The notes under the pieces were generated by a model that searched no databases, was not told the DNA's origin, and worked only from the letters and a program-made list of their open reading frames with translations. The position numbers and the translations under genes were made by a program. From NCBI GenBank assembly GCA_046734675.1, contig JBKPRU010000021.1, positions 1-49,424 of the forward strand: a stretch of DNA of 49,424 nucleotides. Reading direction: 5' to 3'. Source of the DNA: Acidobacteriota bacterium. GTDB taxonomy: Bacteria; Acidobacteriota; Vicinamibacteria; Vicinamibacterales; 2-12-FULL-66-21. Each line of letters starts with the position of its first letter. Within the stretch, counting starts at the first letter, position 1. Shown piece after piece: positions 1,681 to 19,300 of the stretch.

Positions 1681-2573
1681 GATCCGCTGTCCGGTCTCTG
1701 CCCGGGCAGCGGGAAGAGCTTCGACTCGCGCGCGACCGTCACGCGGCCGGTCGCCGGATCGAGCACGAACGGCACCTGCGACGAATCGATGGGCACGCCG
1801 GGAACAAGCCGTGCCGCGACCAGGGCCGGCCATGTGACCGGCGCGTTCGGATGCTCGGCGCGAAAGCGCGCGACGCGCGCCTCGAGCATCTCGATGGTGT
1901 CCATCGCATCGAGCTGCTTCAAGCGCAGCGTGGCGGAATCGCGCAGCCATGGCTCCTCGGACTGCGCGAGCTGCTGCCACAACGTCCGCGACGCGCTGCG
2001 ATGGCCGCCCTCGGCCAGCGTGACCGCGGCAAGCGGGCGAAGCCATGACGGCGCTCCCGGCACGTCTGCGGCTCGCTGGAACCACGACGCGGCCGCCTTG
2101 TAGTCCTGCATGTGCCAGTAGTAGACGAACCCGAGGTCCTGCATGTACTGCCACTTGTGCGGCTGTTCCGCGAGTCCCTTCTGCAGCAGCGCGACCGCGA
2201 GGTCCGGCCGTTGTGGCCCGCCGGGATGCGGCTCGCCCAGGAAGATCGCGCCGAAGCGATACGCGATGCTGAAATACGGGTCGAGGCTGGTTGCGAGATC
2301 GAGCAGCGGATAGAGCAGCGCGTAACTCCGGACGTGCCCTGGCGGCGACAGGCGCTCGCGTCCGAAATGCTGCAGGGCGCGGATCCAGTACACGTCGGCC
2401 GCGAACCCGTGATAGCCGAGCGCGACGCGTTTCATCGCCGCCGGCGATCGCACGTAGAGCAGGTCGGGACGATCCACGACCGGTGCGGGTGCGTGCGCGT
2501 CCTGCGCGGCATGGAGGCCCACGGCCGCGGCAAGGCACAGCGCGGCGGCACCCCCGGCGGCGGCGCGCCTCAC
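1677..2573 (-). CDS. hypothetical exported helical-repeat (TPR-like) protein, third gene of the ABC module
   Basis: Protein-like part of track ORF 1677..3449: signal-like AAGGAAALCLAAAVGLHAAQD, then DVYWIRALQHFG..., WQYMQDLGFVYYWHMQDYKAAASWFQRA. The GTG at 2573 overlaps the permease stop (GTGA), and its own stop overlaps the pilD start. Confidence 0.65.
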   Translation of the reverse strand: MRRAAAGGAAALCLAAAVGLHAAQDAHAPAPVVDRPDLLYVRSPAAMKRVALGYHGFAADVYWIRALQHFGRERLSPPGHVRSYALLYPLLDLATSLDPYFSIAYRFGAIFLGEPHPGGPQRPDLAVALLQKGLAEQPHKWQYMQDLGFVYYWHMQDYKAAASWFQRAADVPGAPSWLRPLAAVTLAEGGHRSASRTLWQQLAQSEEPWLRDSATLRLKQLDAMDTIEMLEARVARFRAEHPNAPVTWPALVAARLVPGVPIDSSQVPFVLDPATGRVTVARESKLFPLPGQRPDSGS

Positions 2574-3376
2574 TTGAGATCCCTCCGCGCGAAGATCACG
2601 CACGCCAGGAACAGCAGCGCCGCGATGTAGACCACCGCGTACATCGTCGTCCACGCGAGATACCCGGCGGTCACCGGGATGCCGTGGACCACCGCCAGCT
2701 TCACGTCGAAGCGCGCGAAGTCGGGCAGCACGTAGTAGCACGCCTTGCCGATCCATGCGGCGGCCGGCGAGCTGACGATCTCGTCGAAGCGCTTCAGGTC
2801 CGCGTTGAACTGTCCGGCCACGTAGAGGCCGAGCGTGAACACCGCCGAAAGCATCGGACTCGAATACGTCGAGAACAATACGGCGAGCGCGGTGACCAGC
2901 GCGAGGTCGACGTAGATCAGCGCGATCGCCTCGAGCAGCGCCGGATCGAGCGCCGGCGCATCCCACGCGCGCTGGATGTTGTCGGGAACGCCGCGCGACA
3001 GGAAGAACAGGACCGTGTAGAGCGCGACCGTCATGACGACGACGTTCACCAGCAGCGTGAGCAGCAGGCCCGCGTACTTGCCGACGACGAACTCGGAGCG
3101 GCGAATCGGTTTCGCGAACAGCGGATAGACGCTGCGCCGCTCCACTTCCTTCGACACCAGGTTGATGCCGACGAAGATGGAGATGAAAAGGCCGAAGAGC
3201 GACGTCGCGGTGAGGCCCAGGTCCTTGATGATCTTGACGTCCTGCCCCGCCGTCAGCTGACCGATGAGAATCGAGGCGCCGACCAGCAGCACCGCGAACA
3301 ACACGAGGTTGTAGAACACGCGATCGCGGACCGACTCGCGGAAGACGGCAATCGCGACGAAGCGGGCCGCGTTCAT
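2570..3376 (-). CDS. ABC-2 type transporter permease
   Basis: 268-aa polytopic protein (MNAARFVAIAVFRESVRDRVFYNLVLFAVLLVG...), typical of ABC-2/NosY-like permeases. ATGA overlap with the ATPase gene. Confidence 0.85.
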   Translation of the reverse strand: MNAARFVAIAVFRESVRDRVFYNLVLFAVLLVGASILIGQLTAGQDVKIIKDLGLTATSLFGLFISIFVGINLVSKEVERRSVYPLFAKPIRRSEFVVGKYAGLLLTLLVNVVVMTVALYTVLFFLSRGVPDNIQRAWDAPALDPALLEAIALIYVDLALVTALAVLFSTYSSPMLSAVFTLGLYVAGQFNADLKRFDEIVSSPAAAWIGKACYYVLPDFARFDVKLAVVHGIPVTAGYLAWTTMYAVVYIAALLFLACVIFARRDLK

Positions 3377-4335
3377 GCGATCGACCTCGGGCGCGCGCCC
3401 TCCCCCACCTCCGTGACGCGCCGCACGAACAGATCCTCGAGCGTTTCACGGATGGGATTCAGCGCGACCAGCGTGCCGCCGGCCGCCGTCACCTCCGCGA
3501 GGAGCTGCTCCGGACGGGCGTCCGCGGGGATGTCGATCGAGAAGCGGTCGCCGGTGATGGGCGTCACCGAGCGCACCCGCGGCCGGATCTTCTCGATCAC
3601 CTGCGGCGGCACGCGCGCGACGACGAGTTCCCACCCGTGGACCGCGAACTCCTGCAGGTCCGACAGGCGGCCGGTCGCGGCCAGCCGTCCCTTGGCGAGG
3701 ATCGCGACCCGGCTGCAGAGCGCCTCGGCGTCCGAGAGGATGTGCGAACTGAAGAAGATCGTGCGTCCCTGATCGCGAAGCTCGAGGGTGAGGGCGCGCA
3801 CGTCGCGGCGACCCAGCGGATCGAGCCCCGACATCGGTTCGTCGAGAATGATCAGTTCGGGATCGTTCAGCAGTGCCTGCGCGAGGCCGACGCGCTGCAG
3901 CATGCCTTTCGAGAAGCGCCGCAGCGGCAGCCGGCGCTCGGCGCCGATGCTCAGGCGGTCGAGCACGCCGCGCACGCGCCCGGTACGCTCGGCCGCACCC
4001 ATGCCGAAAAGCCGCGCGTAGTAATCGAGCAGCTCCTCGGCGGTCAGGTGATCGTAGAAATACGGGTTCTCGGGAAGGTAGCCGATGCGCCGCCGGACCG
4101 CCACGTCTCCGACCGGGCGTCCGAGGATCTCGGCGTCGCCGCGCGTGGGAAACACCAGCTGCATCAGCAGCTTCAGCGTCGTCGTCTTGCCGGCGCCGTT
4201 CGGCCCCAGGAAGCCGAAGACATCACCGGGGGCGACCTCGATCGAAAGACGATCCAATGCCCGGTAAGGGCGGGGACGCCAGAACCCGACCGGGAAGTCT
4301 TTCGTCAGCTCACGAGTGCGAATCGCGGGGACCAC
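3373..4335 (-). CDS. ABC transporter ATP-binding protein
   Basis: Walker A GPNGAGKTT, signature FSKGMLQRVGLAQAL, Walker B LIILDEP. The start is a GTG. Confidence 0.9.
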   Translation of the reverse strand: MVPAIRTRELTKDFPVGFWRPRPYRALDRLSIEVAPGDVFGFLGPNGAGKTTTLKLLMQLVFPTRGDAEILGRPVGDVAVRRRIGYLPENPYFYDHLTAEELLDYYARLFGMGAAERTGRVRGVLDRLSIGAERRLPLRRFSKGMLQRVGLAQALLNDPELIILDEPMSGLDPLGRRDVRALTLELRDQGRTIFFSSHILSDAEALCSRVAILAKGRLAATGRLSDLQEFAVHGWELVVARVPPQVIEKIRPRVRSVTPITGDRFSIDIPADARPEQLLAEVTAAGGTLVALNPIRETLEDLFVRRVTEVGEGARPRSIA

Positions 4336-4355: not shown

Positions 4356-5555
4356 CTACTTGGATGCCCCTTTCAATTCCAGTTCCAATGCCTCTTCGAA
4401 GTATTGCGCCGGCAGCCCGCCCTTCAGCAGACGGCCATTAATAAAGAAGGTAGGCGTGGAAGTGACGCCCAGCACGGAGCCGGTCGACGCGTCCGTCTTC
4501 ACTTCCTGAATGGCTTTCGCGTACTGCGCGTCGAAATCTGTAATCCCACCGACAGTTTTGGCAGCGTCGCGGACCGTGGCGGGACTGAGCGTGCCCTGGT
4601 TGGTGAAGAACCAGGCGGTGAGCTTGTCGAAGGTCCCCTTCGACTGCGCCATCACCGCGGCGGCCGCCGCCTCGCACGCCGCCGGGTGCACCATCGTCGG
4701 CACCGACGAGTTGCACTGCGGGTTCAGCGGATAGTGCTTCATCAGGTACTTCACGCCGCGCGGCTCGTACTTCGCGAGGATCGATTCATACGCCTCGTAG
4801 GTCTGCTTGCACGGCGGGCACTGGTAGTCGTTGAACTTCACGACCAGCACCTTGGCGCCGTCGGCCGAATACGGCACCTGCACCTTCGGCTGCATCTCGT
4901 ACCAGCGCTGGAACTCGCTCCGCTGCTGCTCCGTGAGCGGCGCCGGCGCGGCGCCCGAGGCCGCGCTCTGTGACGCGTCGTGCGGGAAGAGCGCGACGGC
5001 CGATACCGCGCCCGCCAGGAAGAGCAGCGCGACGACAATCGCGAGCGGCGTCGTGACGAGCACGCGCAAATCGCGCGACGCGCGTCTCGGAAGACTGGTC
5101 ATAGGCAAGGAACTCGCTCCTCCGGAGATGATGAAGATGCCAATCACCGCGACGTAGGTCGCCACGCACAACGGGCACACCGCCTTGAGGATGAAGAAGG
5201 AGGCGTACGCGAGATACAGGACCACGGCGAGCGCGATCGTCGATGCCGCGAACACGTAGGCCGGCGCGCTGTCCGAAATACGGCTCTTCCCGCCCGCGCC
5301 CCAGACGAGGATCAGCACGAAGAGGAAGAAGACGAGGCCGCCGAGGGCGACCGGCACTCCGGCCAGCGATCCGTAGCGGCTCAGGTATGCCTGCGTGCAG
5401 CTGACGGTCGCATTGATGTCGCAGAAGCTCGTATAGGCCGGGTTCTTCAGCAGGTTGTAGTGCACGTAGGCCGACGCCGCGGACGCCAGCAGTCCGAGCA
5501 GCCCGAATCCGAGCAGAAGCCGTCGCGCGCGTGCTGACATCGGGAAAACCCTCAT
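4356..5555 (-). CDS. VKOR-domain / DsbA-like thioredoxin fusion (disulfide-bond-forming oxidoreductase)
   Basis: The N-terminal half has several TM helices with Cys pairs (FCDINATVSC, AVCPLC), typical of VKOR. The C-terminal half is a thioredoxin fold with CPPC (FNDYQCPPCKQ). An alternative start ATG at 5540 has a better GAGGG Shine-Dalgarno. Confidence 0.85.
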   Translation of the reverse strand: MRVFPMSARARRLLLGFGLLGLLASAASAYVHYNLLKNPAYTSFCDINATVSCTQAYLSRYGSLAGVPVALGGLVFFLFVLILVWGAGGKSRISDSAPAYVFAASTIALAVVLYLAYASFFILKAVCPLCVATYVAVIGIFIISGGASSLPMTSLPRRASRDLRVLVTTPLAIVVALLFLAGAVSAVALFPHDASQSAASGAAPAPLTEQQRSEFQRWYEMQPKVQVPYSADGAKVLVVKFNDYQCPPCKQTYEAYESILAKYEPRGVKYLMKHYPLNPQCNSSVPTMVHPAACEAAAAAVMAQSKGTFDKLTAWFFTNQGTLSPATVRDAAKTVGGITDFDAQYAKAIQEVKTDASTGSVLGVTSTPTFFINGRLLKGGLPAQYFEEALELELKGASK

Positions 5556-5558
5556 ATT

Positions 5559-6113
5559 CTACTTTATTTCCGTGCCTTTGCCGGGGTTCCCCGTCTCGGG
5601 CATCTTCTCGAGGTACGTCTCGGCGTCCTCGTAGAGCACGCGGTCCGCGTTGATCGCGAAGAAGCGCTCGCCGCTGATCCCCGGGGTTGCCGGATCGGCG
5701 GTCACCGCGTAGCCCTCCGCGACCGCCGTGCCGTTGCACGCGGGCGCGGCACCGTCGACTGGCTTCGCGGTCATTGCGAAGAGGTACCCGGATTTCTCGA
5801 ACTGATCCGCCGACGTCAGATCCGGGCTGAGGAACGCTTCGCCGCTCTGCGGCACCGGCTGCCCGAGTGCCGGCAGCGAGGCGGCGTACTTCTGGCTGCC
5901 GCACGTCTGCGCGAACTGCCACTGGGCCGCGGCAATCGAGCGCAGCGACGCGATGGCCGACGCTTCGTTGCCACGCGCGTGCATGTTGCGATAGGTCGCG
6001 AACGCAATGGCGAGGACGATGCCGATGATCGCGAGGACGATCATCAGCTCGATCAGCGTGAAGCCCTGCTGCGCGTCTCCTCCGCCTGAAGTCGGAAGCC
6101 GCGGGGCTTCCAA
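5559..6113 (-). CDS. type IV pilin-like protein (fourth paralogue); start uncertain
   Basis: ...DAQQ/GFTLIELMIVLAIIGIVLAIAFATYRNMHARGNEASAIASLRSIAAAQ matches the class III signal and N-terminal helix of the other three pilins, and it has two Cys. No ATG or GTG precedes the G/F cleavage site. The only candidate start is TTG at 6113, and the frame stays open upstream into the YfhO-like gene. Confidence 0.55.
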   Translation of the reverse strand: MEAPRLPTSGGGDAQQGFTLIELMIVLAIIGIVLAIAFATYRNMHARGNEASAIASLRSIAAAQWQFAQTCGSQKYAASLPALGQPVPQSGEAFLSPDLTSADQFEKSGYLFAMTAKPVDGAAPACNGTAVAEGYAVTADPATPGISGERFFAINADRVLYEDAETYLEKMPETGNPGKGTEIK

Positions 6114-8723
6114 CCGGCCGCTCCCCTCCGAGCTCCTGTAGCTTCCGCCTTCAGGCGGAAGTCTCCGCCGCGGCGCTCGCCAGACACTCATCGCCATCAA
6201 CAACAACGCTGTCACTGTCGTGATAGTTAGACCCGTGAACAGGTCGCGCGGTCTGAACCGGAACCGTATCACGTGGCGTCCCGGCGCGAGATGGACGGCG
6301 CGATACATGCCGTTCGCACGCGTCATCTCCGCGGCAGCGCCGTCGACCTCGACGCGCCACGACGGATCGTAGGAATCGCGCAGGACGAGGAACCCGTCGC
6401 GCTCCAGGCCGGCTTCGAGGACGACCCGGTTCTCGCCGTCCTCGACAAACCGCGCGAACGGCGGCACCGGCGCACCCGCGATTCCGGCGGCTGCCGGCAC
6501 GAACGGCACCCGCAGGTCATCGTCGGGTACCGTCGCATCGAACAGCGCACGCTGCTGCCATGCCGGGTCTTCGCCGGTTTTTGCCTTCGACGCGATGAAC
6601 ACGCGCGTCGCGTCCGGGTCGCAGTCGACGAGCCGCATCGACCAGTGGGGCACTGAAGCGATGGTATGCAGCCACGGGCGGGCGGCGTCCGGCAGCACGC
6701 ACCAGCGGACGCCGGAACGGCGCAGGAAAAGCTCGCGCTCGCCCGCCGTCGCGCGCTCGAAGCGGCGCACCAGCCCCTCGTACTCCGCCGGCCACAACAC
6801 CGGGAGATCGTAGGACAGCGCCTCGCGCACCTGCCACCCGGACGGCGCCATCGGCAGCTCCGCGTTCAACTCCATCCGCCCTTCGATCGCGGTCGGCTCG
6901 GCCGGGATCTCCCATTTCTTCGAGGCGTCGGGATCTTCCGCGTTCATGAACCCGCGCACCCGGCCGCCGATGTAGAGCCGCGAGTCCCCGGCGAGCGCCG
7001 TGTACCACTGCGGCGGCGTCAGCTTCGCCAGGTCCATGGTCAGGTTCAGATCGGCGTTGGTGACGACCAGGTCCGCGCACATCGCGGCAAGGAGCAGGTA
7101 TGCCGCCGCGTGCGCGCGCGAACCCGATGAGATCGCGATGGCCAGCAGCGTCGCGGCCGCGAGCAGCATCGCGGCGACGCGTGCCGCCAGCGGCGGCGCC
7201 ACGCGCAGCAGAAACGGCGTACCCGTCACCGGCTCCACGTGCACGCGTGTCGCCAGAGCGGCCACCGCGCGCTCCGCCCTGGCCGCCGCGACAATCGGCA
7301 GGGCAATCGCGACTCCGATCGCCATCGCGAGGACGACGCAGCCAAGCGCCACGAACTTGATGCGCCTCCGCTTACCCGCGTCTGCGAGCGCCGCCCAGCC
7401 GTCCGCCGCGAGCACCGCGACCGCAAACGTCGTCACGACGAGGTACTTCACCGGGAAGCGGAAGTACGTAAGCGGCGATAGCAGACGCCTTACCAGCGGG
7501 TAGAACGGCGTGTAGCCGCCCATCGCCGCCAGGAAGAAGAGGACGGCCAGCAGCGCCCAAACGACGTTTCGGCGCGGACGCGCGACCAGCCCGGTCGCCG
7601 CGAGCGCGAGCACGAGCGGCCCGACGTAGATGGAGTAATAGAACGGCTCGCGTCCGCTATTGAACGGCGCCATCCACGGCATGTCCGCAAGGAACGCGTC
7701 GTAGTAGTTGCCGAAGAGATGCGGCGCGACGACTTCGAGCGCGCCCAGCGGATGCAGCGACCAGAAATCCGGCGTCGCCATGTTGCCGCGATGCGCCTGC
7801 ACCCCTGCCATCATCGTCGGCCAGAGTTGCACGGCCGCGAGCAGCGCGCCGAGAAGCAAACCCGCCACGACCCATGCGGCGGCTGTCATGCCGGGTCTAA
7901 AGACCCGGCCTACGTGTGATCGAACTTGTCGGGTGTCGGCCGCATCTTTACTGGTGTAGCCCGAGTCTTTAGACCCGCCTTTCTCGACGTAGGCCGGGTC
8001 TTTTGACCCGGCGTTCTCGACGTAGGCCGGGTCTTTTGACCCGGCGTTCTCCACGTAGGCCGGGTCTTTAGACCCGGCAATCTGCCATCCGCGCCACGCC
8101 GCATACGCGACGGCGACGACGGCCGTCGACGCCAGCGTGACCGGCTCACCGCAGAGCGCCTGCAGTGCGACGGCGACGGCCAGCGTGGCGAGCCGCCGCA
8201 TCGACGGCGAGTCGATCAGCCGATCCGCCGCGAGCAGCACGAGCGGCATGGCGGCGACCGACCACGACAGGTTCGGCGCGTTGAGCATCGACACGATCGG
8301 TCCAGACAGTCCGAACGCGATCGCGCCGGTTGCTGACGCGGCGTCGCGGTGCGTGCGCCGCAGGAATGCGAACATGCCGAGGCTGGCAATCGGCAGGGGC
8401 AGCGCCACCCAGAGATTGAAGGACACGACCTCGGACGGGAGCAGCCGGATCAACGCCGTGATCGGCATGACCAGCTGGTTCAACGCGTCGGCGATCGCCG
8501 ACTGCCCCGCCGCGACGTAGGGATCCCACAGCGGGAACGACCCCGAGAAGACGGTGCGTCGAAACCAGAGGTGTCGCGACCAGAAGAAGAACGACAGGTC
8601 GCGGACGAAGAAGATCCTTGAGAGCGTGAAGAGGCCGGCGATCGGCACGATCGAGAGCGCGACGACGAGCCCGGCCCAACGCGAGCGGAGCAAACCGTGC
8701 GTTCGGGACGCCGGGTCGGTCAC
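5559..8723 (-). CDS. YfhO-family polytopic membrane protein, copy A (GT-C-like). The reading frame has no stop until the pilin stop at 5559.
   Basis: The GTG at 8723 overlaps the stop of copy B (GTGA). FFVRDLSFFFWSRHLWFRRTVFSGSFPLWDPYVAAGQS..., C-terminal VLRDSYDPSWRVEVDGAAAEMTRANGMYRAVHLAPGRHVIRFRFRP. It is colinear with copy B throughout. The expected end (after ...SVWRAPRRR, about 6160) has no stop codon. Confidence 0.7.
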   Translation of the reverse strand: MTDPASRTHGLLRSRWAGLVVALSIVPIAGLFTLSRIFFVRDLSFFFWSRHLWFRRTVFSGSFPLWDPYVAAGQSAIADALNQLVMPITALIRLLPSEVVSFNLWVALPLPIASLGMFAFLRRTHRDAASATGAIAFGLSGPIVSMLNAPNLSWSVAAMPLVLLAADRLIDSPSMRRLATLAVAVALQALCGEPVTLASTAVVAVAYAAWRGWQIAGSKDPAYVENAGSKDPAYVENAGSKDPAYVEKGGSKDSGYTSKDAADTRQVRSHVGRVFRPGMTAAAWVVAGLLLGALLAAVQLWPTMMAGVQAHRGNMATPDFWSLHPLGALEVVAPHLFGNYYDAFLADMPWMAPFNSGREPFYYSIYVGPLVLALAATGLVARPRRNVVWALLAVLFFLAAMGGYTPFYPLVRRLLSPLTYFRFPVKYLVVTTFAVAVLAADGWAALADAGKRRRIKFVALGCVVLAMAIGVAIALPIVAAARAERAVAALATRVHVEPVTGTPFLLRVAPPLAARVAAMLLAAATLLAIAISSGSRAHAAAYLLLAAMCADLVVTNADLNLTMDLAKLTPPQWYTALAGDSRLYIGGRVRGFMNAEDPDASKKWEIPAEPTAIEGRMELNAELPMAPSGWQVREALSYDLPVLWPAEYEGLVRRFERATAGERELFLRRSGVRWCVLPDAARPWLHTIASVPHWSMRLVDCDPDATRVFIASKAKTGEDPAWQQRALFDATVPDDDLRVPFVPAAAGIAGAPVPPFARFVEDGENRVVLEAGLERDGFLVLRDSYDPSWRVEVDGAAAEMTRANGMYRAVHLAPGRHVIRFRFRPRDLFTGLTITTVTALLLMAMSVWRAPRRRLPPEGGSYRSSEGSGRLEAPRLPTSGGGDAQQGFTLIELMIVLAIIGIVLAIAFATYRNMHARGNEASAIASLRSIAAAQWQFAQTCGSQKYAASLPALGQPVPQSGEAFLSPDLTSADQFEKSGYLFAMTAKPVDGAAPACNGTAVAEGYAVTADPATPGISGERFFAINADRVLYEDAETYLEKMPETGNPGKGTEIK
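6077..6161. repeat. Family B (REP-like) hairpins occupying the junction between YfhO-like A and the pilin domain
   Basis: GTAG + CTTCCGCC-TTCA-GGCGGAAG at 6138-6161. A degenerate CTCCGCCTGAAGTCGGAAG and GGAAGCC-GCGG-GGCTTCC lie at 6077-6110. Confidence 0.8.
7890..8078. repeat. Family B REP array inside the YfhO-A coding frame: four direct GTAG+palindrome units at exact 33-nt spacing (7956, 7989, 8022, 8055) plus one inverted unit (7890-7913)
   Basis: GTAGGCCGGGTCTTTTGACCCGGC repeated. On the coding strand it translates as GSKDPAYVENA x3 without a stop. This segment has no counterpart in paralogue B. Confidence 0.9.
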
Positions 8724-11167
8724 GCGGCCGCTGTCGTGGCGGTCACCCGCGCCCGGCGCAGCCGCCGGTCGACCAGGCACCACGCGACCAGCGCGAGGGC
8801 CGCCGCGGCGGTAATCGACGCGCCGAGATATACGAGGCGGGGCTCGTAGGTGAAGGTGACGACGTGATTGCCGCGTGTCAGGTGGACGGCGCGGAAGGTG
8901 CCGTTGGCGCGCATGAGCGGCGCTGCCATGCCGTCGACGTCGACGGTCCAGTCCGGATCGTAGCTGTCGAACAGCGCGAGATAGCCGTCGGCCGGCAGAC
9001 CCGCACGAACGACGACGCGGTCGTGCGCGTCCTGGATGATGGCTGCAGATGCAGCGACCGCAGGGCCCTCGAGGCCCGCGGCCGCAGGGGGCCGCTCGCT
9101 GACGAGCACGCCCGTCCGCGGATCGAACCGCTGCTGGAATAGGCCCTCGATCTGCCACGGAATGTCCGGGCCGATCAGCGCGTCGGGCACGACCGTCACG
9201 CGCGTGGCGTCGGGGTGACATTCGTAGAGCTGCATCTGGGGAATGCCGCGCAGTGACGCGAGCGGCTTCGCGCCGGAATACGGCGGCGTCGGCAGCACGC
9301 AGAAACGAGTACCGATACGCTGCAGGACCCTCAGCCGCTCTTCGCGCGTGGCGCCGCGGAACCGTGTGATCAACCTGGCGTAGTCGAGCGGCCAGAGCAG
9401 CGGGAGATCGAACGAGATCGATTCGCGCACCTGCCATCCCGACGGCGAGTACATCAACTCGTTCACCGCGAGATACCGCGCGTCGGTCGGCGACGTGGCA
9501 TCCGGAGGACTCACCCACTTCGGCGCATCGGGATCCAGCGGATTGATCCAGCCTTCGAGACGGCCCCCCATGTAGAGGCGCTCCCCCGGATGCGCGTTCA
9601 TCACGTCCACCCACGCCGGCGGCCCCAGCGCCGCCGCGTTCATCGTCGGATTCACGTCGCTGTTGGACGCAGCCAGATCGACGACGAGGGCGACGCCGAG
9701 CACCGCGCGCGCGAACCGGCGCTCGCGGCGCGTCGAGATCGCGATGACCACGAGCAGACTCGTCGCCATCAGTTTGAGAAACAACGTGGTCAGCAGCGGC
9801 CGCGCACGGAAGATCAGGTATTCCGCGCCCTGGATGGGGAACGGCACGTGCGCGATCTCCGCGAGCCGATAGAAGACACGCGCGGGATGCGCCGGCGCGA
9901 TGAGCAACCACGCGACGACGACGTAGGCGCACACTCCGACAGCCGCCGCGAGCGCGGCGACGATGACCCCGCGCCGCCACCGAATCTCGCCGTCGAGAAT
10001 CGCCTGCCACCCGTACGCCGTCAGCGCGGCGAGCGCGAACGACCCGAGCGAGAGGTACTTCACGGGGAACCGGAACGCGCTCAGGCCCGGGACGACCTGC
10101 TGCAGTATCGGATAAATCGGTGTGTACGATCCGAGCGCCGCGACGACGGCAGCAAGTAGTGCCGTCGCCCAGAATGCGTGCTGCCGCCGACGAATCGTGG
10201 TTGCGAGTGCCGCGACCACCACGGCGACCACACCGACGTACATCGTGTAATAGAACGGCTCGCGCCCGCTGTTCAGCGCGACCATCCATGGGAGCTCGCG
10301 CAGATTCGAGCTGAAATAATCACCGTAGAAGTGCGGCACGAACAGCTCGAGCAGCGCGAGCGGGTGGAAGGCCCAGAAATCGTCGCCCGTCATCAGGCTG
10401 CGCACCGAGTGGCGGCTGGCGCCAAGCAGAGGCGCGAACTGGATGGCCGCGAGCACGAGCCCGAGGACGACGGCGGCGAGGGTCGTCGCCAGCGCGCGCG
10501 TGCGAGCGCGCCAGTCCGGAGCCGCGACGACGAGCGTGTAGGCCGCAGCCAGTGCGAGCGTGCCGGCGAGACTTACCGGCTCCCCCGCCAGTGCCTGCAT
10601 CGCGACGATCGCGGCGAGGGCAGCCGCCGTCGCCCCGGCCGGCCGGGTGAGCACGCGATCGATGGCCCAGAACACGTACGGAACCGCCGCGATCGACCAG
10701 GACAGGTTCGGAAAGTTCGTCGTCGAGACGATCGGGCCCGACAGCGCGAATGTGAGCGCGCCAATCGACGCCGGGACGTCGCGTACGTGCCGCCGCAGGA
10801 ACAGCCATGCGCCGAGGCAGGCGATCGGGACGGGCAGCGCGACCCAGAGATTCCAGGCGAGGATCTGCGGAAGCAGCAGCCGCAAGGCAAGCGTCGGCGG
10901 CAGGAACAACTGGTACAACGCGTCGCCCGCGGCCGACTGTCCCGACGCGGGGAACGGATCCCACCAGGGCCACTGCGCGGACGCAACCGTGCTCCGGAGC
11001 CACAGAAAGCGCGAATGAAACGCGAGCGTGAGATCGCGAACGAAGAACATCCGCGACGTCGTGAAGACGCCGGCGACGGGCACGAACGCGACGGCGGTGA
11101 CGATCAGGCCCCACGTCCACCCGGGCCAGGCACCGGGTGAGAAACGGGAGTGACGTTGTCGCAGCAT
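8720..11167 (-). CDS. YfhO-family polytopic membrane protein, copy B (GT-C-like)
   Basis: MLRQRHSRFSPGAWPGWTWGLIVTAVAFVPVAGVFTTSRMFFVRDLTLAFHSRFLWLRSTVASAQWPWWDPFPASGQSA..., C-terminal LFDSYDPDWTVDVDGMAAPLMRANGTFRAVHLTRGNHVVTFTYEP. I prefer ATG 11167, because the track start 11227 would place the pilA terminator hairpin inside the gene. Confidence 0.8.
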   Translation of the reverse strand: MLRQRHSRFSPGAWPGWTWGLIVTAVAFVPVAGVFTTSRMFFVRDLTLAFHSRFLWLRSTVASAQWPWWDPFPASGQSAAGDALYQLFLPPTLALRLLLPQILAWNLWVALPVPIACLGAWLFLRRHVRDVPASIGALTFALSGPIVSTTNFPNLSWSIAAVPYVFWAIDRVLTRPAGATAAALAAIVAMQALAGEPVSLAGTLALAAAYTLVVAAPDWRARTRALATTLAAVVLGLVLAAIQFAPLLGASRHSVRSLMTGDDFWAFHPLALLELFVPHFYGDYFSSNLRELPWMVALNSGREPFYYTMYVGVVAVVVAALATTIRRRQHAFWATALLAAVVAALGSYTPIYPILQQVVPGLSAFRFPVKYLSLGSFALAALTAYGWQAILDGEIRWRRGVIVAALAAAVGVCAYVVVAWLLIAPAHPARVFYRLAEIAHVPFPIQGAEYLIFRARPLLTTLFLKLMATSLLVVIAISTRRERRFARAVLGVALVVDLAASNSDVNPTMNAAALGPPAWVDVMNAHPGERLYMGGRLEGWINPLDPDAPKWVSPPDATSPTDARYLAVNELMYSPSGWQVRESISFDLPLLWPLDYARLITRFRGATREERLRVLQRIGTRFCVLPTPPYSGAKPLASLRGIPQMQLYECHPDATRVTVVPDALIGPDIPWQIEGLFQQRFDPRTGVLVSERPPAAAGLEGPAVAASAAIIQDAHDRVVVRAGLPADGYLALFDSYDPDWTVDVDGMAAPLMRANGTFRAVHLTRGNHVVTFTYEPRLVYLGASITAAAALALVAWCLVDRRLRRARVTATTAAA

Positions 11168-11196: not shown

Positions 11197-11230
11197 ATGA
11201 AAAGGCGAGGGATGTCCGAGCGGACATCCC
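11197..11230 (-). terminator. candidate intrinsic terminator after pilin 1
   Basis: Perfect 9-bp stem GGGATGTCC-GCTC-GGACATCCC (11209-11230), followed on the minus strand by TCGCCTTTTCAT. Confidence 0.55.
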
Positions 11231-11258
11231 TCGCTCGAAACCGACTGGCTGACGATCC

Positions 11259-11783
11259 TTACTGAATCGCCGACGCGCCCGACGGGGTCGCCGTGTCGCT
11301 CATGCCGCTGAGCGTCGCCGTGCCCTGCCAGATCGTGCCCGTGGTGTTGGAGCCGAAGAAGCGCGTGCCCGTCGAGCTCGACGAGGGATCCGCCCAGGAG
11401 TGATAGCCGGTCGAGAGCGACGAAGACGCCGCACCGTTGCACGCGGTTGCCGTGCCGCCGCCCGCGCCGTCCATGCCGACCAGGTAGCCGCTCTTCGACG
11501 CCGTCGCGGCCGCGCCGAGGTCCGGGCTGATGAACGCCGAGCCGCCCGAGGGACCGCTGCCCAGAATGTCGAGGGTCTTCGCGTACTGGCCGTTCGCGCA
11601 GCTCGCCGAGAACGTCGACTGCGCGCTGCTGATGGCGCGCAGCGAACCAATCGCTGACGCCTCGTTACCGGAGATGCGCGCCCGCAGCAGACCCGGGACC
11701 GCGATCGCCGCGATGATGCCGATGATCGCCACGACGATCAACAGCTCAATCAGCGTGAAGCCTTTCTGATTACGAACCTTCAT
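11259..11783 (-). CDS. pilA: type IV major pilin, paralogue 1
   Basis: MKVRNQK/GFTLIELLIVVAIIGIIAAIAVPGLL... AGGAG lies 9 nt upstream of ATG 11783. Two Cys and a Ser/Thr-rich C-terminal third. Confidence 0.9.
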   Translation of the reverse strand: MKVRNQKGFTLIELLIVVAIIGIIAAIAVPGLLRARISGNEASAIGSLRAISSAQSTFSASCANGQYAKTLDILGSGPSGGSAFISPDLGAAATASKSGYLVGMDGAGGGTATACNGAASSSLSTGYHSWADPSSSSTGTRFFGSNTTGTIWQGTATLSGMSDTATPSGASAIQ

Positions 11784-12085: not shown

Positions 12086-12610
12086 TTACTGAATCGCCGA
12101 CGCGCCCGACGGCGTGGCCGTGTCGCTCATGCCGCTGAGCGTCGCGGTGCCCTGCCAGATCGTGCCCGTGGTGTTCGAGCCGAAGTAGCGGGTGCCCGTC
12201 GAGCTCGATGAGGGATCCGCCCAGGAGTGATAGCCGGTCGAGAGCGACGAAGACGCCGCGCCGTTGCAGGCGGTCGCCGTGCCGCCGCCCGCGCCGTCCA
12301 TGCCCACGCGGTAGCCGCTCTTCGTCGCGGTCGCCGCTGCGCCGAGGTCCGGGCTGATGAACGCCGAGCCGCCCGAGGGGCCCGTGCCGAGCACGTCCAT
12401 CGTCTTCGCGTACTGGCCGTTCGCGCAGCTCGCCGAGAAGGTCGACTGCGCGCTGCTGATGGCGCGCAGCGAACCGATCGCCGACGCCTCGTTGCCGGAG
12501 ATACGCGCCCGGAGCAGGCCCGGGACCGCAATCGCCGCGATGATGCCGATGATCGCCACGACGATCAGCAGCTCGATCAGGGTGAAACCTTTCTGGTTAC
12601 GCATCTTCAT
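12086..12610 (-). CDS. pilA: type IV major pilin, paralogue 2 (near-identical tandem copy of paralogue 1)
   Basis: MKMRNQK/GFTLIELL... It shows 7 amino-acid differences from paralogue 1 over 174 aa in my alignment. GGAG lies upstream of ATG 12610. Confidence 0.9.
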   Translation of the reverse strand: MKMRNQKGFTLIELLIVVAIIGIIAAIAVPGLLRARISGNEASAIGSLRAISSAQSTFSASCANGQYAKTMDVLGTGPSGGSAFISPDLGAAATATKSGYRVGMDGAGGGTATACNGAASSSLSTGYHSWADPSSSSTGTRYFGSNTTGTIWQGTATLSGMSDTATPSGASAIQ

Positions 12611-12852: not shown

Positions 12853-13362
12853 TCACTGAATCGGGATGCCGGTCGACGGCGTGGCCGTGTCGCTCATGGC
12901 GTTCAGCGAGGACGAGGCCTGCCAGATCGTGCTCGTGGTGTTCGTCCCGAAATAGCGGACGCCGCTGTTCTCGGAGACCGGGTCGGCCCAGGCGTGGTAG
13001 CCGTTCGCGAGCGCCGTGGTGCCGTTGCATGCGGGCGATCCGGACGCGCCTGCGCCGGCGAGCGAAATCGAATACCCGCTCTTGACGGCGGTTGGCGCGC
13101 CGCCGAGATCGACGCTGAGGAACGGCTCGGTCCCGGACGGTCCGGTGCCGAGGATGTCGAGCGTCGCCGCATACAGGCCGTTCGCGCAGCTCCTCGAGAA
13201 CGTCGCCTGCGCGCTGCCGATCGCGCGGAGCGAGGCGATCGCGGACGCCTCGTTGCCGGAAATGCGCGCCCGCAGCAGCCCCGGCGTCGCAATGGCCGCA
13301 ATCGCCGCGATAATCGCCACGACGATGAGCAGTTCGACGAGCGTGAATCCGTTCTTCTTCAT
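12853..13362 (-). CDS. type IV pilin, paralogue 3 (divergent)
   Basis: [52 protein letters not shown]... Two Cys. ATG 13362 overlaps the pilR stop (ATGA). Confidence 0.88.
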   Translation of the reverse strand: MKKNGFTLVELLIVVAIIAAIAAIATPGLLRARISGNEASAIASLRAIGSAQATFSRSCANGLYAATLDILGTGPSGTEPFLSVDLGGAPTAVKSGYSISLAGAGASGSPACNGTTALANGYHAWADPVSENSGVRYFGTNTTSTIWQASSSLNAMSDTATPSTGIPIQ

Positions 13363-14795
13363 TTGAGGTTGTACTTTTTCATGTAGTAGCGGAAGGATCG
13401 GAAGCTCATACCGAGCAGCTCCGCTGCCTTCACCTTCACGCCACCCGATCGGCGCAGCGCCTCCGCGATGTACTCGCGCTCGAGATGCTGCACATGCTGT
13501 TCGAGGTCGAAGCCGGTCTCAGGCAGCGCCGATGGTGCGGGCGCGCTCCCACCCGCCGCGGCCGGCGCCGCCACCGCCGCCGTCGTGCCACGCACCGCTT
13601 CCGGCAGGCTCTCGGGCTGGATCGTCGACGCCCGTTCCAGCGCCACCGCACGTTCGATCGCGTTTTCGAGCTCGCGGACGTTGCCCGGCCAGGCGTACGA
13701 GGTCAGCGCCGCCATCGCCGTCGCCGTGATGCCGGTGATGTTCTTCTTCATCTGCGGCGCGTACTTCGTGACGAAGTGCTCGGCGAGCCCGACCACGTCG
13801 TCGCCGCGCTCGCGCAGCGGCGGGAGCCGCACCGGGATCACGTTGATGCGGTAGAAGAGGTCTTCGCGGAACTGCCCCTCCGCCACCATCTTGGCCAGGT
13901 CGCGGTTGGTCGCCGCGATGATCCGGATGTCGGCCTCGATCTCCTCGGTGCCGCCGACGCGCCGGAACTTGCGCTCCTGCAGGACGCGCAGCACCTTGAC
14001 CTGCAGCATCGGGCTCATCTCGCCGATTTCGTCGAGGAAGATGGTCCCTTTGTCGGCGACCTCGATCAGCCCTTTCTTGTTGTTGTCGGCGCCGGTGAAC
14101 GCGCCCCGCACGTGCCCGAACAGCTCCGAGTCGAGGAGCGTTTCCGTCAGCGCGCCGCAATTGACGGCGACGAACGGCCGTTCGCTGCGCGGCGATCGCA
14201 CGTGAATCGCGCGCGCGATCAGCTCCTTGCCCGTGCCGGATTCACCGGTGATCAGAATCGTGCTGCCGGTCGCCGCGACGGTCTCGACCAGCTCGAACAC
14301 CTGAATCATCGCGCTGCTGCTGCCGACGATGTTCGAGAAGTGATGCGCGGTGTGCATCGCGCGCTTCAGCAACACGTTCTCCTGCTGCAGGCGACGGCGA
14401 TCCAGCTCCTTGCGGATGCGGAACTTGAGCACCTCGGTGTTGAACGGCTTCTCGACGTAGTCGTTGACGCCGAGCTCCTCGACGCCCTTGATCAGGTCCG
14501 GCGATCCATAGGCGGTGATCATGATGGCGATCACCGCGGGGTTGACGCTGCGCGCGTGCCGGAGCACCTGCAGGCCGTCGACGTCCGGCATCCGCGCGTC
14601 GGATACGACCAGATCGAACGGGCGCTGGTTCAGGAACTCCAGCGCGCGGCGGCCGTTCTCGGCGATCGCGACATCGTGTCCCTCGCGCCGCAGGAGGATC
14701 GCCAGCATCTCGCGCATCGACCGCTCGTCGTCGACGATGAGGATGCGCGCGGCGGGCGCCGCGACCGGATCGACGGTCTGTACGTCAATAGCCAT
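13359..14795 (-). CDS. pilR: sigma54-dependent response regulator (receiver, AAA+ and Fis-type HTH domains)
   Basis: [22 protein letters not shown].., [21 protein letters not shown], ...[20 protein letters not shown]. The track ORF extends spuriously to 15092. Confidence 0.9.
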
Positions 14796-14802
14796 AACGT
14801 TG

Positions 14803-16473
14803 TCAGCCGGAGACGGCAGCCGCGACCGCGCCCACCGGCAGCACCACCTCCACCGTGGTTCCCATGCCCTTGTTCGACGACACGCGAACCTCGCCGCCGT
14901 AGTCGCTCGCGATGCGATGCACGATCGACAGACCGAGGCCTGTGCCCTTCGTAAACGTGCCGCGGAACGGCTGGAAGATGCCGTCGATCTCTTCCGGCGC
15001 GATGCCGACGCCGTCGTCACGTACCCCAATGACCACGTGCTCCGGTTCCTTGGCGGTCTTCTCGTGACGGTGGACCGACAGCCGCAGCACACCGCCGTTG
15101 GGCATCGCCCGCAGACCGTTGGTGGCCAGGTTCCAGACGATCTGGCGCACCTGCGCTTCGTCGGCGCGGTAGATCACCCGTTCCTGCGGCGCATCGACGA
15201 CGATCGAATGGCCGTCGACCAGCTCCGCGTTGTTCTCGAGCAGCGTCGCCGTGTCGGTCAGCACGCGCCCAACGTCCGTGTCGGCCAGCGCCGCGCGCTG
15301 CGGCCGCGCGTAGGCGAGGAAGCTTCGGATCGTGTCGTTCAACCGCTCCGACTCGCGCAGCACGATGTCCATCAGCTGCGACTGCTCCGGCGTCAATGGC
15401 AGCTCGTCGCGCAGGATCTGAATTGAGCCGGCCATCGACGCGAGCGGGTTGCGGATCTCGTGCGCGATGCCGGCGGCCATCTCGCCAACCGCCGCGAGCC
15501 GCTGTTGCACGCGCGCCTCGCGGTCCTGCTTCCTGGCTTCAGTCACGTCCTGGAACGTGAACAGGAACCCCGAATTGCCGCTCGGTGTGACGAGCGGCGC
15601 GGCGCTGATCCCGAGCTCGATCTGCCGTCCGTCCGCGCGCGTGTAGCCGTACTCGAGCCGCGGCAGCACCGGACGGCCGTCCTCTCGGTTGAAGAGCCCG
15701 ACATACGGCGACGGCAGCTGCAGCACCGCCATCATCGATTGTCCGAGCGCCTCGGCCGCCGTCATGCCGGTGATGCTCTCGCCGGCGCGGTTGAACGTCA
15801 GCACCCGTCCCGTCATGTCGCACGTCGTCAAGCCGCTCTGGAGGCTGTCGATCACGTGCTGGTTGAACGCCTGCAGGTCCGCCAGCTGCGTCGACGTTTC
15901 TTCGAGCTGCTCGCCGGTGCGGCGTAACCCTTCCGCGAGGTACCCGCTCAGCGCCGCGACCGCGAGGAACCCGAACACGTTCAGGCCCACCGTGTAAATC
16001 GCCACGCGCATCGGCGGCAGCGTCTCCGGCGCCATCCCGAACGGCAGCACCATGCCCGCGTACTGCGCGATCACCAGCCCGACGTAGATCAGACAGCTGA
16101 GCGCGCTCACCATCAGGCCGCCGCGCCACGACTGCACGGTGCTGGCCGCGATGATCGGCAGCGTGTAGAGCGATGAGAAGTAGCTCGCGACCCCGCCGGT
16201 CAGATGCACCATCGCGGAAACGACGAGCGCGTCGCACGCGACCTGCACGTCGATCAGCCACGGATGCCGATCGACGTAGCGCAGCGTCGCCGCCCAGAAC
16301 GCCGTCAGCCCGTAGGTCAGGCCAATCAGGAAAAAGAACGGATCGATCGGCAGCGCGCCCGGCGACTTGAACTGAATCAGGATCGCCGACCCGAGCAGCA
16401 TCGTGATCACACCGGCGCGCCCGCCAATGAGCCACAGCAGCTTGTGCCGCACGCCGGTCAACGTTGCTTGCAT
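14803..16473 (-). CDS. pilS: membrane sensor histidine kinase (multi-TM N-terminus, PAS, HisKA, HATPase)
   Basis: AAGIAHEIRNPLASMAGSIQIL H-box, and the G-box GTGLGLSIVHRIASDYGG. It lies directly upstream of pilR. Confidence 0.88.
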   Translation of the reverse strand: MQATLTGVRHKLLWLIGGRAGVITMLLGSAILIQFKSPGALPIDPFFFLIGLTYGLTAFWAATLRYVDRHPWLIDVQVACDALVVSAMVHLTGGVASYFSSLYTLPIIAASTVQSWRGGLMVSALSCLIYVGLVIAQYAGMVLPFGMAPETLPPMRVAIYTVGLNVFGFLAVAALSGYLAEGLRRTGEQLEETSTQLADLQAFNQHVIDSLQSGLTTCDMTGRVLTFNRAGESITGMTAAEALGQSMMAVLQLPSPYVGLFNREDGRPVLPRLEYGYTRADGRQIELGISAAPLVTPSGNSGFLFTFQDVTEARKQDREARVQQRLAAVGEMAAGIAHEIRNPLASMAGSIQILRDELPLTPEQSQLMDIVLRESERLNDTIRSFLAYARPQRAALADTDVGRVLTDTATLLENNAELVDGHSIVVDAPQERVIYRADEAQVRQIVWNLATNGLRAMPNGGVLRLSVHRHEKTAKEPEHVVIGVRDDGVGIAPEEIDGIFQPFRGTFTKGTGLGLSIVHRIASDYGGEVRVSSNKGMGTTVEVVLPVGAVAAAVSG

Positions 16474-17906: not shown

Positions 17907-17933
17907 AACCGTCCTTTAGTCCCTAGCCTGGCT

Positions 17934-17989
17934 GTAGGGCGCGTCTTCAGACGCGCCGTCCCCGAGGCGCACCTGAAGGTGCGCCCTAC
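17934..17989. repeat. Family B REP pair in inverted orientation
   Basis: GTAGGGCGCGTCTTCAGACGCGCC and GGCGCACCTGAAGGTGCGCCCTAC. Confidence 0.9.
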
Positions 17990-17996
17990 ACCTGTC

Positions 17997-19124: not shown

Positions 19125-19300
19125 GTGATCCTTTTTTCAATGCGCGTGGGGCCCCATCCCCACGCGCTTCACGCGCTTCGCGCGACGCCCTTCGTCCCTC
19201 GACGTCGCTCGGGACGACCCTGAGCTGTCGAAGGGTCGGGCTTGCCGCCGCGTCGCGGCGGCCGTCTGTCTTCCGCCTTCCGTCTTCCGTCTTCCGTCTT
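19125..19300 (-). repeat. Family A element, copy A3 (long form with a nested 44-nt insert and a CCGTCTT x3 tail)
   Basis: Core hairpin at 19142-19167, nested insert at 19195-19238, GCCGCCGCGTCGCGGCGGC at 19243-19261. It fills the whole pilB-pilT spacer. Confidence 0.9.

Follow-up and report, generated by a model that had tools for sequence, protein, structure and literature searches.

A type IV pilus cluster in a soil bacterium of the Vicinamibacterales (Acidobacteriota) encodes, directly after three pilA paralogues, two YfhO-family GT-C-like membrane proteins, A and B, the second of which continues into a complete prepilin within one open reading frame. We give even chances to a scheme in which A and B glycosylate the Ser/Thr-rich major pilins of the cluster and B additionally yields a pilin through the prepilin peptidase PilD. 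An earlier note on this DNA had regarded a glycosylation role of this kind as new for the YfhO family; protein O-glycosylation by the family is already known (PMC12041528), and the novelty would lie in the pilin target alone. In the literature searched there is no report of a YfhO-family pilin target or of an enzyme-prepilin fusion, nor of an internal class III signal of such a kind or of a pilin made 1:1 with its modifying enzyme. The window (the whole stretch of DNA that was analysed, 49,424 nucleotides) holds the module with all its genes on the minus strand, in the order pilB-pilT-pilC-pilS-pilR, three pilA paralogues, A, B, VKOR/DsbA, ABC transporter, an unknown ~298-aa protein and PilD:

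16689..21109, minus strand: pilB (19301-21109), pilT (17997-19124) and pilC (16689-17906)
14803..16473, minus strand: PilS-like sensor histidine kinase
13359..14795, minus strand: PilR-like sigma54-dependent response regulator, 478 aa
12853..13362, minus strand: pilin 1, 169-aa prepilin, MKKNG/FTLVELL, major-type, Ser+Thr 23%
12086..12610, minus strand: pilin 2, MKMRNQKG/FTLIELL, major-type, Ser+Thr 27%
11259..11783, minus strand: pilin 3, MKVRNQKG/FTLIELL, major-type, Ser+Thr 27% (44% in the last 55 aa)
11205..11234, minus strand: intrinsic-terminator-like hairpin directly 3' of pilin 3, 13-bp stem with 9 G-C pairs, then CTTTTC
8720..11167, minus strand: protein A (P0001), unfused YfhO-family GT-C-like membrane protein, 815 aa
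5559..8723, minus strand: protein B (P0121), single 1054-aa ORF of YfhO-family GT-C-like enzyme, linker and full prepilin
4356..5555, minus strand: VKOR-DsbA/thioredoxin fusion, disulfide formation
3373..4335, minus strand: ABC transporter ATPase, in a PilH-like position
2570..3376, minus strand: ABC-2 permease, in a PilI-like position
1677..2573, minus strand: conserved ~298-aa protein with no Pfam match, start uncertain
901..1680, minus strand: prepilin peptidase PilD, A24_N_bact and Peptidase_A24 (Pfam)

PilD, encoded in the same cluster, is the cognate prepilin peptidase for the pilins, and the VKOR-DsbA gene comes next after the fused pilin at every related locus whose downstream genes were checked. 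For the ~298-aa protein, a GTG start at 2573 agrees with homologue lengths of 297-304 aa. Sigma54-like elements lie 5' of pilin 2 (a -24/-12 element at 12683-12697) and of pilin 3 (11871-11885). The longest reading frame of A begins at an ATG at 11227; the hairpin covers this codon, and A therefore probably starts at its annotated position, 11167, which is 91 nt 3' of the pilin 3 stop codon (11259-11261). The GTG start of B at 8723 overlaps the TGA stop of A (GTGA).

Each of the three pilA paralogues, of which pilins 2 and 3 are near-duplicates, carries a class III signal with a leader of 5-8 residues, and G/F-T-L-x-E with a hydrophobic helix is present in all four pilins (Pfam N_methyl / TIGR02532). 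All four had been described as Ser/Thr-rich. This is true of pilins 1-3, with 23-27% Ser+Thr overall and 31-44% in the last 55 residues against a background of 11% in the other window proteins, but not of the fused pilin (13%, and 11% in its last 55 residues), which is therefore probably not the main acceptor. The major pilins of relatives are likewise Ser/Thr-rich; such richness is widespread among pilins and is not specific evidence. In a mediocre model of pilin 1 (pLDDT 70), the Ser/Thr-rich C-terminal stretch is a coil ending in a short strand, and not a clearly disordered tail.

The earlier note had placed two paralogous polytopic proteins between three pilA genes and a fourth pilin. The paralogy and the pilA adjacency stand, but B is not the separate ~850-aa protein described there: no stop codon lies between its enzyme part and pilin 4, and 5559-8723 is a single frame that ends in the 167 residues of the mature pilin. 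The enzyme-pilin fusion, absent from that account, is the most unusual feature of the locus. The parts of B are as follows:

6180..8723, minus strand: GT-C-like part, residues 1-848 (from the model)
7956..8078, no strand assigned: 33-bp x 3.7 tandem array of a REP-like palindrome, with an extra copy at 7890-7909
6066..6179, minus strand: Arg-rich linker, residues 849-886, RAPRRRLPPEGGSYRSSEGSGRLEAPRLPTSGGGDAQQ, pLDDT <50
6060..6065, minus strand: predicted prepilin-peptidase site G(-1)/F(+1), GGC TTC, residues 887/888
5562..6062, minus strand: mature pilin 4, 167 aa, two Cys, Ser+Thr 13%

The N_methyl signal falls at residues 884-908 of B. Type IV prepilin leaders are usually short, about 5-30 residues, whereas the class III signal of pilin 4 is internal, with 886 residues of enzyme and linker ahead of the cleavage site residue. 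Pilin 4 is 43% identical to pilin 1 over the full length, and its profile also matches solved type IVa pilins. Among relatives it represents a conserved orthologous type, much more conserved than the major pilins. Two palindromes (6142-6161 and 6091-6114) are found in the linker, together with one in-frame TTG 16 codons ahead of G-1 that has GGAGGGGAG (GGAGG) 5' of it; a second initiation at this codon, alongside the one-ORF product, is possible. By helix counting, the loop encoded by the tandem array, low-confidence residues 223-271 with in-frame GSKDPAYVENA repeats, is placed on the cytoplasmic side.

The fusion recurs in relatives. Pfam N_methyl is found in all 120 best homologues of B (48-78% identity), 109 of which also have a precomputed YfhO match, and in every one the pilin motif lies ~168-170 residues from the C-terminal end. 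B itself is longer than all but one of the homologues listed (910-1094 aa). Residues G-1, F1, T2, L3 and E5 are invariant in these 120 sequences (0 bits of entropy), while positions -15 to -2 reach 2.6-3.7 bits, so that conservation begins exactly at the peptidase site. The net charge of the linker is +2.7. Inspected as DNA, 17 of 17 fused loci keep the pilin in frame despite many insertions and deletions in the linker, and 13 of the 17 linkers contain no ATG, GTG or TTG.

Alignment of A with B gives 40% identity across 572 residues and 56% across 185, and the motifs quoted for them in the earlier note are present in both: FPLWDPY or WPWWDPF in the N-terminal part and SYDPSWRVEVDG...ANGMYRAVHL...G.H in the C-terminal part. 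A search with the Pfam YfhO model (PF09586, GT-C clan), proposed in the same note, scores A at 43.6 bits and B at 47.4-49.6 bits, above the gathering cut-off of 28.5, with the match carried mainly by 52-60 C-terminal residues (profile 776/784-835 of 835). Colinear N-terminal matches are weak (B 106-177 to profile 96-170, E 0.0047; A 217-493 to profile 204-433, E 0.1), which leaves the N-terminal PLWDPY, a YfhO hallmark in the earlier note, as a putative hallmark at most. Several homologues have faint DUF6044 or PTPS_related matches, and the proteins of this locus have weak C-terminal NCBIfam matches to PgfM1 and PgfM2. Structure modelling, also suggested there, gave an AF2 model of B (pLDDT 88.4, pTM 0.80) with ~13-14 helices overall: a helix bundle to residue 556, an extracytoplasmic beta-rich domain at ~557-825 with strands between residues 672 and 823, and a last transmembrane helix at 826-848. 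Foldseek matched this model to 22 PDB entries at E <= 0.1, every one a GT-C enzyme; the top matches, all at probability 1.0, are AftD (2.5e-6) and ArnT (2.6e-4), then STT3, Emb, AftA, AglB, PglB and Pmt, with target-normalised TM-scores of 0.26-0.49. Some 50 positions never vary among 27 diverged sequences, down to ~35% identity, including R41-D42 directly after helix 1 and W66-D67, both in the first loop, G192/P194/V195, R312, R358 and F421-R422-P424-K426. Helix counting puts R41, D42, D67, R312, R358, R422 and K426 in predicted extracytoplasmic loops.

The association with pili extends well beyond this genome. In 28 of 42 related loci from GTDB genomes, a co-occurrence survey that the earlier note had recommended, a pilin is fused to the YfhO-like gene or lies within 2.5 kb of it, and this adjacency is beyond chance. 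Synteny of the pilus cluster is kept across independent assemblies, and in several diverged clades A/B-type genes stand immediately 3' of pilA inside the conserved cluster. Distantly related proteins (35-41% identity) are also encoded in this type of cluster, where the pilin gene ahead of VKOR stands on its own, the pilin 4 orthologue in relatives being an ordinary free-standing prepilin gene. A sister clade of the A/B proteins sits outside pilus clusters, and one relative has an A-type gene right beside a cluster for glycan synthesis. That one of the paralogues is fused to a pilin supports, as Rosetta-stone-type evidence, a predicted functional partnership between enzyme and pilins. Genes for a GtrB/CsbB/PgfS-type GT-A, a GtrA-type flippase or sugar synthesis are absent among the window genes and within +/-10 kb at three other loci (L003-L005). 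GT-A and flippase neighbours are typical for the YfhO family, though not obligatory.

Several known systems share parts of this arrangement. TfpO/PilO and PglL resemble A and B in that their genes directly follow pilA and their acceptor is a pilin. Those enzymes, however, have a Wzy_C (O-antigen ligase-like) domain, and what they transfer are glycans preassembled on Und-PP; A and B lack this domain, with no Pfam match to it even at E <= 10. In Pseudomonas aeruginosa group IV strains the pilin arabinosyltransferase TfpW is a polytopic GT-C protein encoded immediately 3' of pilA that modifies several pilin Ser/Thr residues from a polyprenyl-phosphate monosaccharide (bioRxiv 10.1101/2020.04.19.049825). 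TfpW spans the membrane with 11 helices, and both its C-terminal TPR domain and its C-terminus are periplasmic, whereas proteins of the A/B type have ~14 helices and a beta-rich domain, with a final helix running to the cytoplasm. No TPR domain is found at the C-terminal end of the B model, which is mostly beta-strand before the membrane helix; this helix returns the chain to the cytoplasm and thus makes a prepilin fusion topologically possible. The same architecture is seen in Bacillus subtilis YfhO, with 13 helices and a large outside loop between the last two; this protein and Listeria monocytogenes Lmo1079 are teichoic acid GlcNAc transferases (PMC5836110). Unlike here, their acceptor is teichoic acid and CsbB/GtcA genes lie adjacent. 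The streptococcal proteins PgtC2 (with GtrB) and PgfM1/PgfM2 (with PgfS) share the Pfam family by gathering score and the GT-C fold; PgtC2 and PgfM1 use Und-P-sugars to O-glycosylate regions rich in Ser/Thr, and they carry an acidic catalytic DXD motif in an extracytoplasmic loop (PMC12041528). PgfM1 and PgfM2 are tandem paralogues, as are A and B, and the streptococcal enzymes modify membrane-anchored proteins in extracytoplasmic parts that are rich in Ser/Thr, as we propose for A and B. The present system differs in belonging to a Gram-negative Acidobacterium and a type IV pilus cluster, in having no partner GT-A alongside and in the prepilin fusion of one paralogue; A and B align well with the streptococcal proteins by their C-terminal part only, and their activity is predicted from sequence. 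No DXD motif is evident in A or B, whose conserved pairs are RD and WD. Finally, modular type IV pilins such as PilB of Streptococcus sanguinis (PMC8179133) also combine a pilin and an extra functional module in one chain, but there the module is on the pilin C-terminus and enters the filament, whereas in B a membrane enzyme of ~850 residues precedes the class III signal, in the leader position.

We infer that A and B glycosylate the pilins of this cluster. In analogy to other YfhO-family systems, undecaprenyl phosphate would receive a sugar from a cytoplasmic glycosyltransferase whose gene lies elsewhere, and the loaded lipid would be flipped to the periplasmic face. A and B would then move the sugar onto Ser/Thr residues of the membrane-anchored major pilins before assembly, with an active site that may lie around the invariant Asp42 and the conserved Arg/Lys loop residues. 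The two enzymes may work in sequence or on different sites, like PgfM1/PgfM2 of Streptococcus mutans. B would be made as one polypeptide, as its single ORF indicates, with the conserved Ser/Thr-poor pilin at its C-terminus and the probably cytoplasmic linker serving as a very long leader peptide. PilD would cut at the G/FTLxE signal, a cleavage suggested by the invariance of G-1, F1 and E5, and release a low-abundance pilin, 1:1 with the enzyme. That B is such a polyprotein, with a ~850-residue, 14-helix GT-C enzyme as prepilin leader that stays in the membrane while PilD frees a functional pilin, we consider a reading that falls just short of an even chance.

Alternatively, the fusion may never be cleaved, and the pilin module would then add a transmembrane helix and a periplasmic pilin domain that docks the enzyme on the assembly platform or on substrate pilins, which would be modified as they enter the machine. 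We judge this rather unlikely, although a Ser/Thr-poor module far more conserved than the major pilins is what one expects of an adaptor, both parts are modelled with high confidence in one chain, and some linkers are very short (7-14 aa); those of only 7-8 residues might hinder the access of PilD. The invariant residues at the peptidase site argue against it, as G-1 matters for cleavage only and F1 and E5 for a processed, assembling pilin, and so does the free-standing orthologue.

We regard it as improbable that A and B are GT-C enzymes acting on a non-pilin acceptor (an exopolysaccharide, a lipid or another envelope protein) and merely co-regulated with pili, the fusion being a neutral loss of a stop codon, tolerated because PilD removes anything ahead of G-1. 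Teichoic acids and other polymers do serve as acceptors for YfhO-family members (PMC5836110), the sister clade lies outside pilus clusters, donor genes are absent nearby, and the linker, with its REP-like palindromes, resembles a former intergenic spacer. However, the pilus link persists in clades at 35-40% identity and with several gene orders, the location directly 3' of pilA fits known pilin-modifying enzymes, and a frame kept through many linker indels is at least not selected against.

The lack of a DXD motif and the strong divergence from the Pfam YfhO core could also point to catalytically dead proteins that act as structural or chaperone-like pilin accessories in the manner of TfpY/TfpZ, but the invariant positions, charged loop residues included, form a typical active-site pattern and make this very improbable. 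An artefact of assembly, sequencing or gene calling, conceivable in a genome with 68% G+C, where stop codons are therefore rare, and with a possible internal start in the B linker, can be rejected: 120 protein clusters, drawn from many independent assemblies (NCBI, JGI, ENA and Logan), show the same in-frame architecture, and most of the linkers inspected at the DNA level lack any start codon.

The fusion links the enzyme to pili from sequence alone, in an abundant and almost uncultured soil lineage, and its conservation raises the question of whether PilD is able to process a substrate with a large polytopic protein as its leader. It also provides an example of fusion evolution in which repeats, palindromes and large shifts in length give the linker the character of an intergenic spacer, yet the frame is kept. 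If our interpretation is true, the recently found protein glycosylation by streptococcal YfhO proteins extends to Gram-negative soil bacteria, and YfhO-type GT-C proteins would be a third family of pilin-glycosylation enzymes, beside the Wzy_C-type (TfpO/PglL) and the TfpW-type.

The pilus gene region lies on the minus strand of the window (G+C content 68%) and comprises the following features.

16689-21109, minus strand: pilB, pilT and pilC
14803-16473, minus strand: PilS-like kinase
13359-14795, minus strand: PilR, sigma54-type
12853-13362, 12086-12610 and 11259-11783, minus strand: three pilA paralogues (pilins 1, 2 and 3)
12683-12697, minus strand: sigma54-like -24/-12 element CGGCATCCCCCTTGC, upstream of pilin 2
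11871-11885, minus strand: sigma54-like -24/-12 element TGGCATCGCCGTTGC, upstream of pilin 3
11205-11234, minus strand: strong terminator-like hairpin directly 3' of pilin 3, spanning ATG 11227, the earliest in the long A ORF
8720-11167, minus strand: protein A, 815 aa
5559-8723, minus strand: protein B, one 1054-residue ORF whose GTG start at 8723 overlaps the A stop as GTGA
4356-5555, minus strand: VKOR-DsbA fusion
between VKOR-DsbA and PilD, minus strand: ABC ATPase, ABC-2 permease, then a ~298-aa protein without Pfam match
901-1680, minus strand: prepilin peptidase PilD

Given the hairpin, expression of A and B may depend on read-through and stay below that of the pilins; the hairpin's position over ATG 11227 points to 11167 as the start of A. 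The sigma54-like elements appear to fit the adjacent PilR-type sigma54 activator; despite these two matches, the sigma54 promoter pattern is not enriched across the whole window. The segment at 901-4335 (ABC ATPase, ABC-2 permease, ~298-aa protein and PilD), which follows the pilins, is presumably similar to the way pilG/H/I and pilD are arranged in Myxococcus xanthus. Pilin 3 is a near-identical tandem duplicate of pilin 2, and one to three such copies precede the A-type gene in relatives. Every related cluster with downstream genes checked has the VKOR-DsbA gene after the fused or last pilin gene (including loci L003-L005, L007, L013, L023 and L032). Elsewhere the window encodes a TraF-like protein, Yip1, HlyD and MacB-type transporter genes, a GH3 glycosidase and an S8 protease; judged from its sequence, a ~700-aa GTPase-like ORF is probably EF-G, and another stretch looks like a ribosomal protein operon. 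By its homologues, the source organism belongs to Vicinamibacterales (Acidobacteriota).

The earlier note had B ending upstream of a separate fourth pilin. In fact no stop codon lies between the last helix of B and this pilin, so that 5559-8723 is a single ORF of 1054 residues, with a GT-C-like part (residues 1-848), an Arg-rich linker (849-886) and a prepilin. A search returned 551 relatives of B, the best 120 of which provide the fusion statistics. These 120 proteins, drawn from NCBI, JGI, ENA and Logan assemblies, are all 910-1094 residues long, at 48-78% identity. Pfam N_methyl is found in 120/120 and a precomputed YfhO match in 109/120. All 120 also carry an intact G|FTL[IVL]E signal, which comes after the enzyme's final helix and a linker highly variable in length and sequence, and which lies, in nearly every one, 168-170 residues before the C-terminus. 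Among the B relatives, positions -15 to -2 have an entropy of 2.6-3.7 bits, and the value for G-1, F1, T2, L3 and E5 is zero. In public databases, these ~1000-residue proteins are labelled either 'prepilin-type N-terminal cleavage/methylation domain-containing protein' or 'YfhO family protein'.

A serious rival to cleavage of this fusion is that the pilin module stays uncleaved and acts as a tethered adaptor. The fused pilin, Ser/Thr-poor and well conserved, fits either an adaptor or a minor pilin. Cleavage is favoured over permanent tethering of the module by the abrupt onset of conservation at G-1 and by the invariant F1 and E5. In this favoured reading B would be a polyprotein, cut by PilD at G887|F888 to free a conserved, Ser/Thr-poor, low-abundance pilin. 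Pilin 4 might instead be made from an internal translation start. In the window this is possible, the linker having one TTG, 16 codons upstream of the pilin and preceded by GGAGGGGAG. We reject it as a general mechanism because the linker (7-58 codons) lacks any ATG, GTG or TTG in 13 of the 17 fused loci inspected at the DNA level, which makes separate translation of their pilin impossible. An artefactual fusion is dismissed, since it is kept in all of the best 120 relatives, from several assembly sources, and the pilin is in frame in 17/17 inspected loci.

In distant relatives (35-41% identity) this pilus cluster also includes a YfhO-like gene, and the pilin gene behind it is a separate one; VKOR-DsbA, the ABC genes and PilD come next. 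Such an order has the look of the arrangement that preceded the fusion. Clustering at 50% leaves only a handful of fusion representatives, so the fusion is confined to one clade, and it is common in soil metagenomes. In a rough tree A and B form sister clades, the fused B clade being monophyletic; homologues of A, ~800 residues in length, are unfused. Another type of fusion, P0255 (384 aa; a YfhO C-terminus with a major-type pilin), was set aside as a singleton on a 2-kb contig for which homology search found no further member. Among the neighbours of the cluster, P0256 (1640 aa) and P0258 (1506 aa) have the appearance of tandem YfhO-YfhO proteins, and P0422 (368 aa) combines VKOR and N_methyl in one protein.

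A and B are paralogues, as previously proposed, with 40% identity over 572 residues and 56% over 185, and both contain the YfhO motifs that had been quoted for them. The suggested search with the Pfam YfhO profile gave 43.6 bits for A and 47-50 bits for B, against a gathering score of 28.5. Almost all of this score comes from the last 52-60 residues (the end of the beta-sandwich and the final helix), the N-terminal halves giving only weak, colinear matches (E 0.005 and 0.1). NCBIfam returned weak C-terminal matches to the Streptococcus mutans glycosyltransferases PgfM1 and PgfM2, and a PDB sequence search with the family profile found pilins only, with nothing related to the enzyme portion. 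The AF2 model of B (pLDDT 88.4, pTM 0.80) has low confidence only at residues 223-271 (a repeat insertion) and 859-888 (the linker). It bears out the GT-C fold anticipated by the earlier note: each of the 22 PDB matches at E <= 0.1 is a GT-C glycosyltransferase (AftD, ArnT, STT3/OST, EmbA/B, AglB, AftA and PglB), and the weaker matches below them include Pmt1/2 and DPY19. About 50 positions do not vary among 27 sequences, the most distant at ~35% identity. Among these positions are R41-D42 just after helix 1, W66-D67, R312, R358 and FRFPxK; in the GEPV motif G192, P194 and V195 are invariant and E193 nearly so. This pattern fits an extracytoplasmic active site binding a polyprenyl-phosphate donor, and the invariant residues may be equivalent to known catalytic ones.

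GT-C enzymes have a cytoplasmic N-terminus and a C-terminal domain outside, so that the last helix of B would have to bring the chain back to the cytoplasm. The Arg-rich linker (mean net charge +2.7 among the relatives) would lie there in agreement with the positive-inside rule, and the class III signal would be placed as in an ordinary prepilin, with its basic leader in the cytoplasm, the G-1|F1 bond at the inner face, and its hydrophobic helix crossing from inside to outside. In B, a bundle of helices precedes a large beta-rich domain on the outside, and a single helix ends the enzyme part, in line with the architecture described for B. subtilis YfhO (PMC5836110).

The loop and the linker of B also contain repeats. 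A REP-like palindrome, GCCGGGTCTTTAGACCCGGC, has 17 strand matches in the window against none expected, and a second palindrome, CTTCCGCCTGAAGGCGGAAG, falls in the linker.

16491-16510: GCCGGGTCTTTAGACCCGGC, pilS-pilC gap
21221-21240: GCCGGGTCTTTAGACCCGGC, between pilB and the TraF-like gene
42469-42488 and 44136-44180: GCCGGGTCTTTAGACCCGGC, likewise outside B
7890-7909 and 7956-8078: GCCGGGTCTTTAGACCCGGC, five copies in frame inside B, with a 33-bp x 3.7 tandem array
6079-6161: CTTCCGCCTGAAGGCGGAAG and a degenerate copy, enzyme-pilin linker of B

The array adds GSKDPAYVENA repeats to the loop modelled with low confidence, and all but one of the homologues listed are shorter than B (1054 aa). 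In this respect the linker is like a one-time intergenic spacer whose reading frame is kept open. Homologue linkers have the appearance of translated repeats (NPxNP runs, SLPRRSGEAA repeats), always in frame.

All four pilins had been described as Ser/Thr-rich. This holds for three of them (S+T 23-27%, and 31-44% in the last 55 residues) and fails for the fused pilin (13% overall, 11% in the last 55 residues), other sampled window proteins standing at 11%. An AF2 model of pilin 1, whose Ser/Thr-rich C-terminus was checked for disorder, has a pLDDT of 70. The pilin part of B matches solved type IVa pilins and, from end to end, shares 43% identity and both cysteines with pilin 1. Each of the four window pilins has two cysteines, and VKOR-DsbA may be a dedicated disulfide-forming enzyme for them.

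The window contains no sugar-activation, GtrB/GtrA or Wzy_C genes, and no glycan-donor genes lie nearby in the window or in relatives, except at one locus, L001 (12566-22535 in GCA_036278735.1). There, only an A-type gene is present, directly followed by a glycan-synthesis cluster (Bac_transf, an epimerase, a WecG-type transferase, methyltransferases, GT2, a CMP-sugar synthetase-like protein, an MptE/Maf-like protein and a Wzx-type flippase), which weakly suggests a supply of donor.

The first role linked to enzymes of the YfhO family was the glycosylation of teichoic acids (PMC5836110). Work from 2025 showed that these enzymes O-glycosylate Ser/Thr-rich regions of streptococcal membrane proteins, PgtC2 pairing with GtrB and PgfM1/M2 with PgfS (PMC12041528), which overtakes the earlier statement that a protein-glycosylating role was undescribed for the family. 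The gene for TfpW, a pilin glycosyltransferase of the GT-C type, lies immediately 3' of pilA (bioRxiv 10.1101/2020.04.19.049825). Unlike A and B, TfpW has a C-terminal TPR domain, and it appears to belong to another family; its C-terminus is periplasmic, which would preclude a prepilin fusion of the B kind. TfpO and PglL carry a Wzy_C domain; none was found in A or B, even at E <= 10. In full-text literature searches, neither a YfhO-type enzyme acting on pilins nor a fusion of an enzyme to a prepilin turned up as described before.

We conclude that A and B are probably pilus-dedicated GT-C glycosyltransferases. They would take undecaprenyl-phosphate-linked sugars made elsewhere in the genome and most probably transfer them by O-glycosylation to the Ser/Thr-rich major pilins at the periplasmic face, acting in sequence or on different sites, like PgfM1/PgfM2. 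Beside the observed family, fold, synteny, conserved fusion and pilin composition, pilin glycosylation by A and B is plausible, though we hold it only a little likelier to be right than wrong.

What the earlier note had noticed is real and more interesting than it stated, partly for a different reason. Pilin glycosylation by A and B would be, by kind, a variant of known systems, and if the pilins are glycosylated, glycopeptides would be expected from ...TRYFGSNTTGTIWQ... The unusual element is the conserved enzyme-prepilin fusion, which is directly testable.
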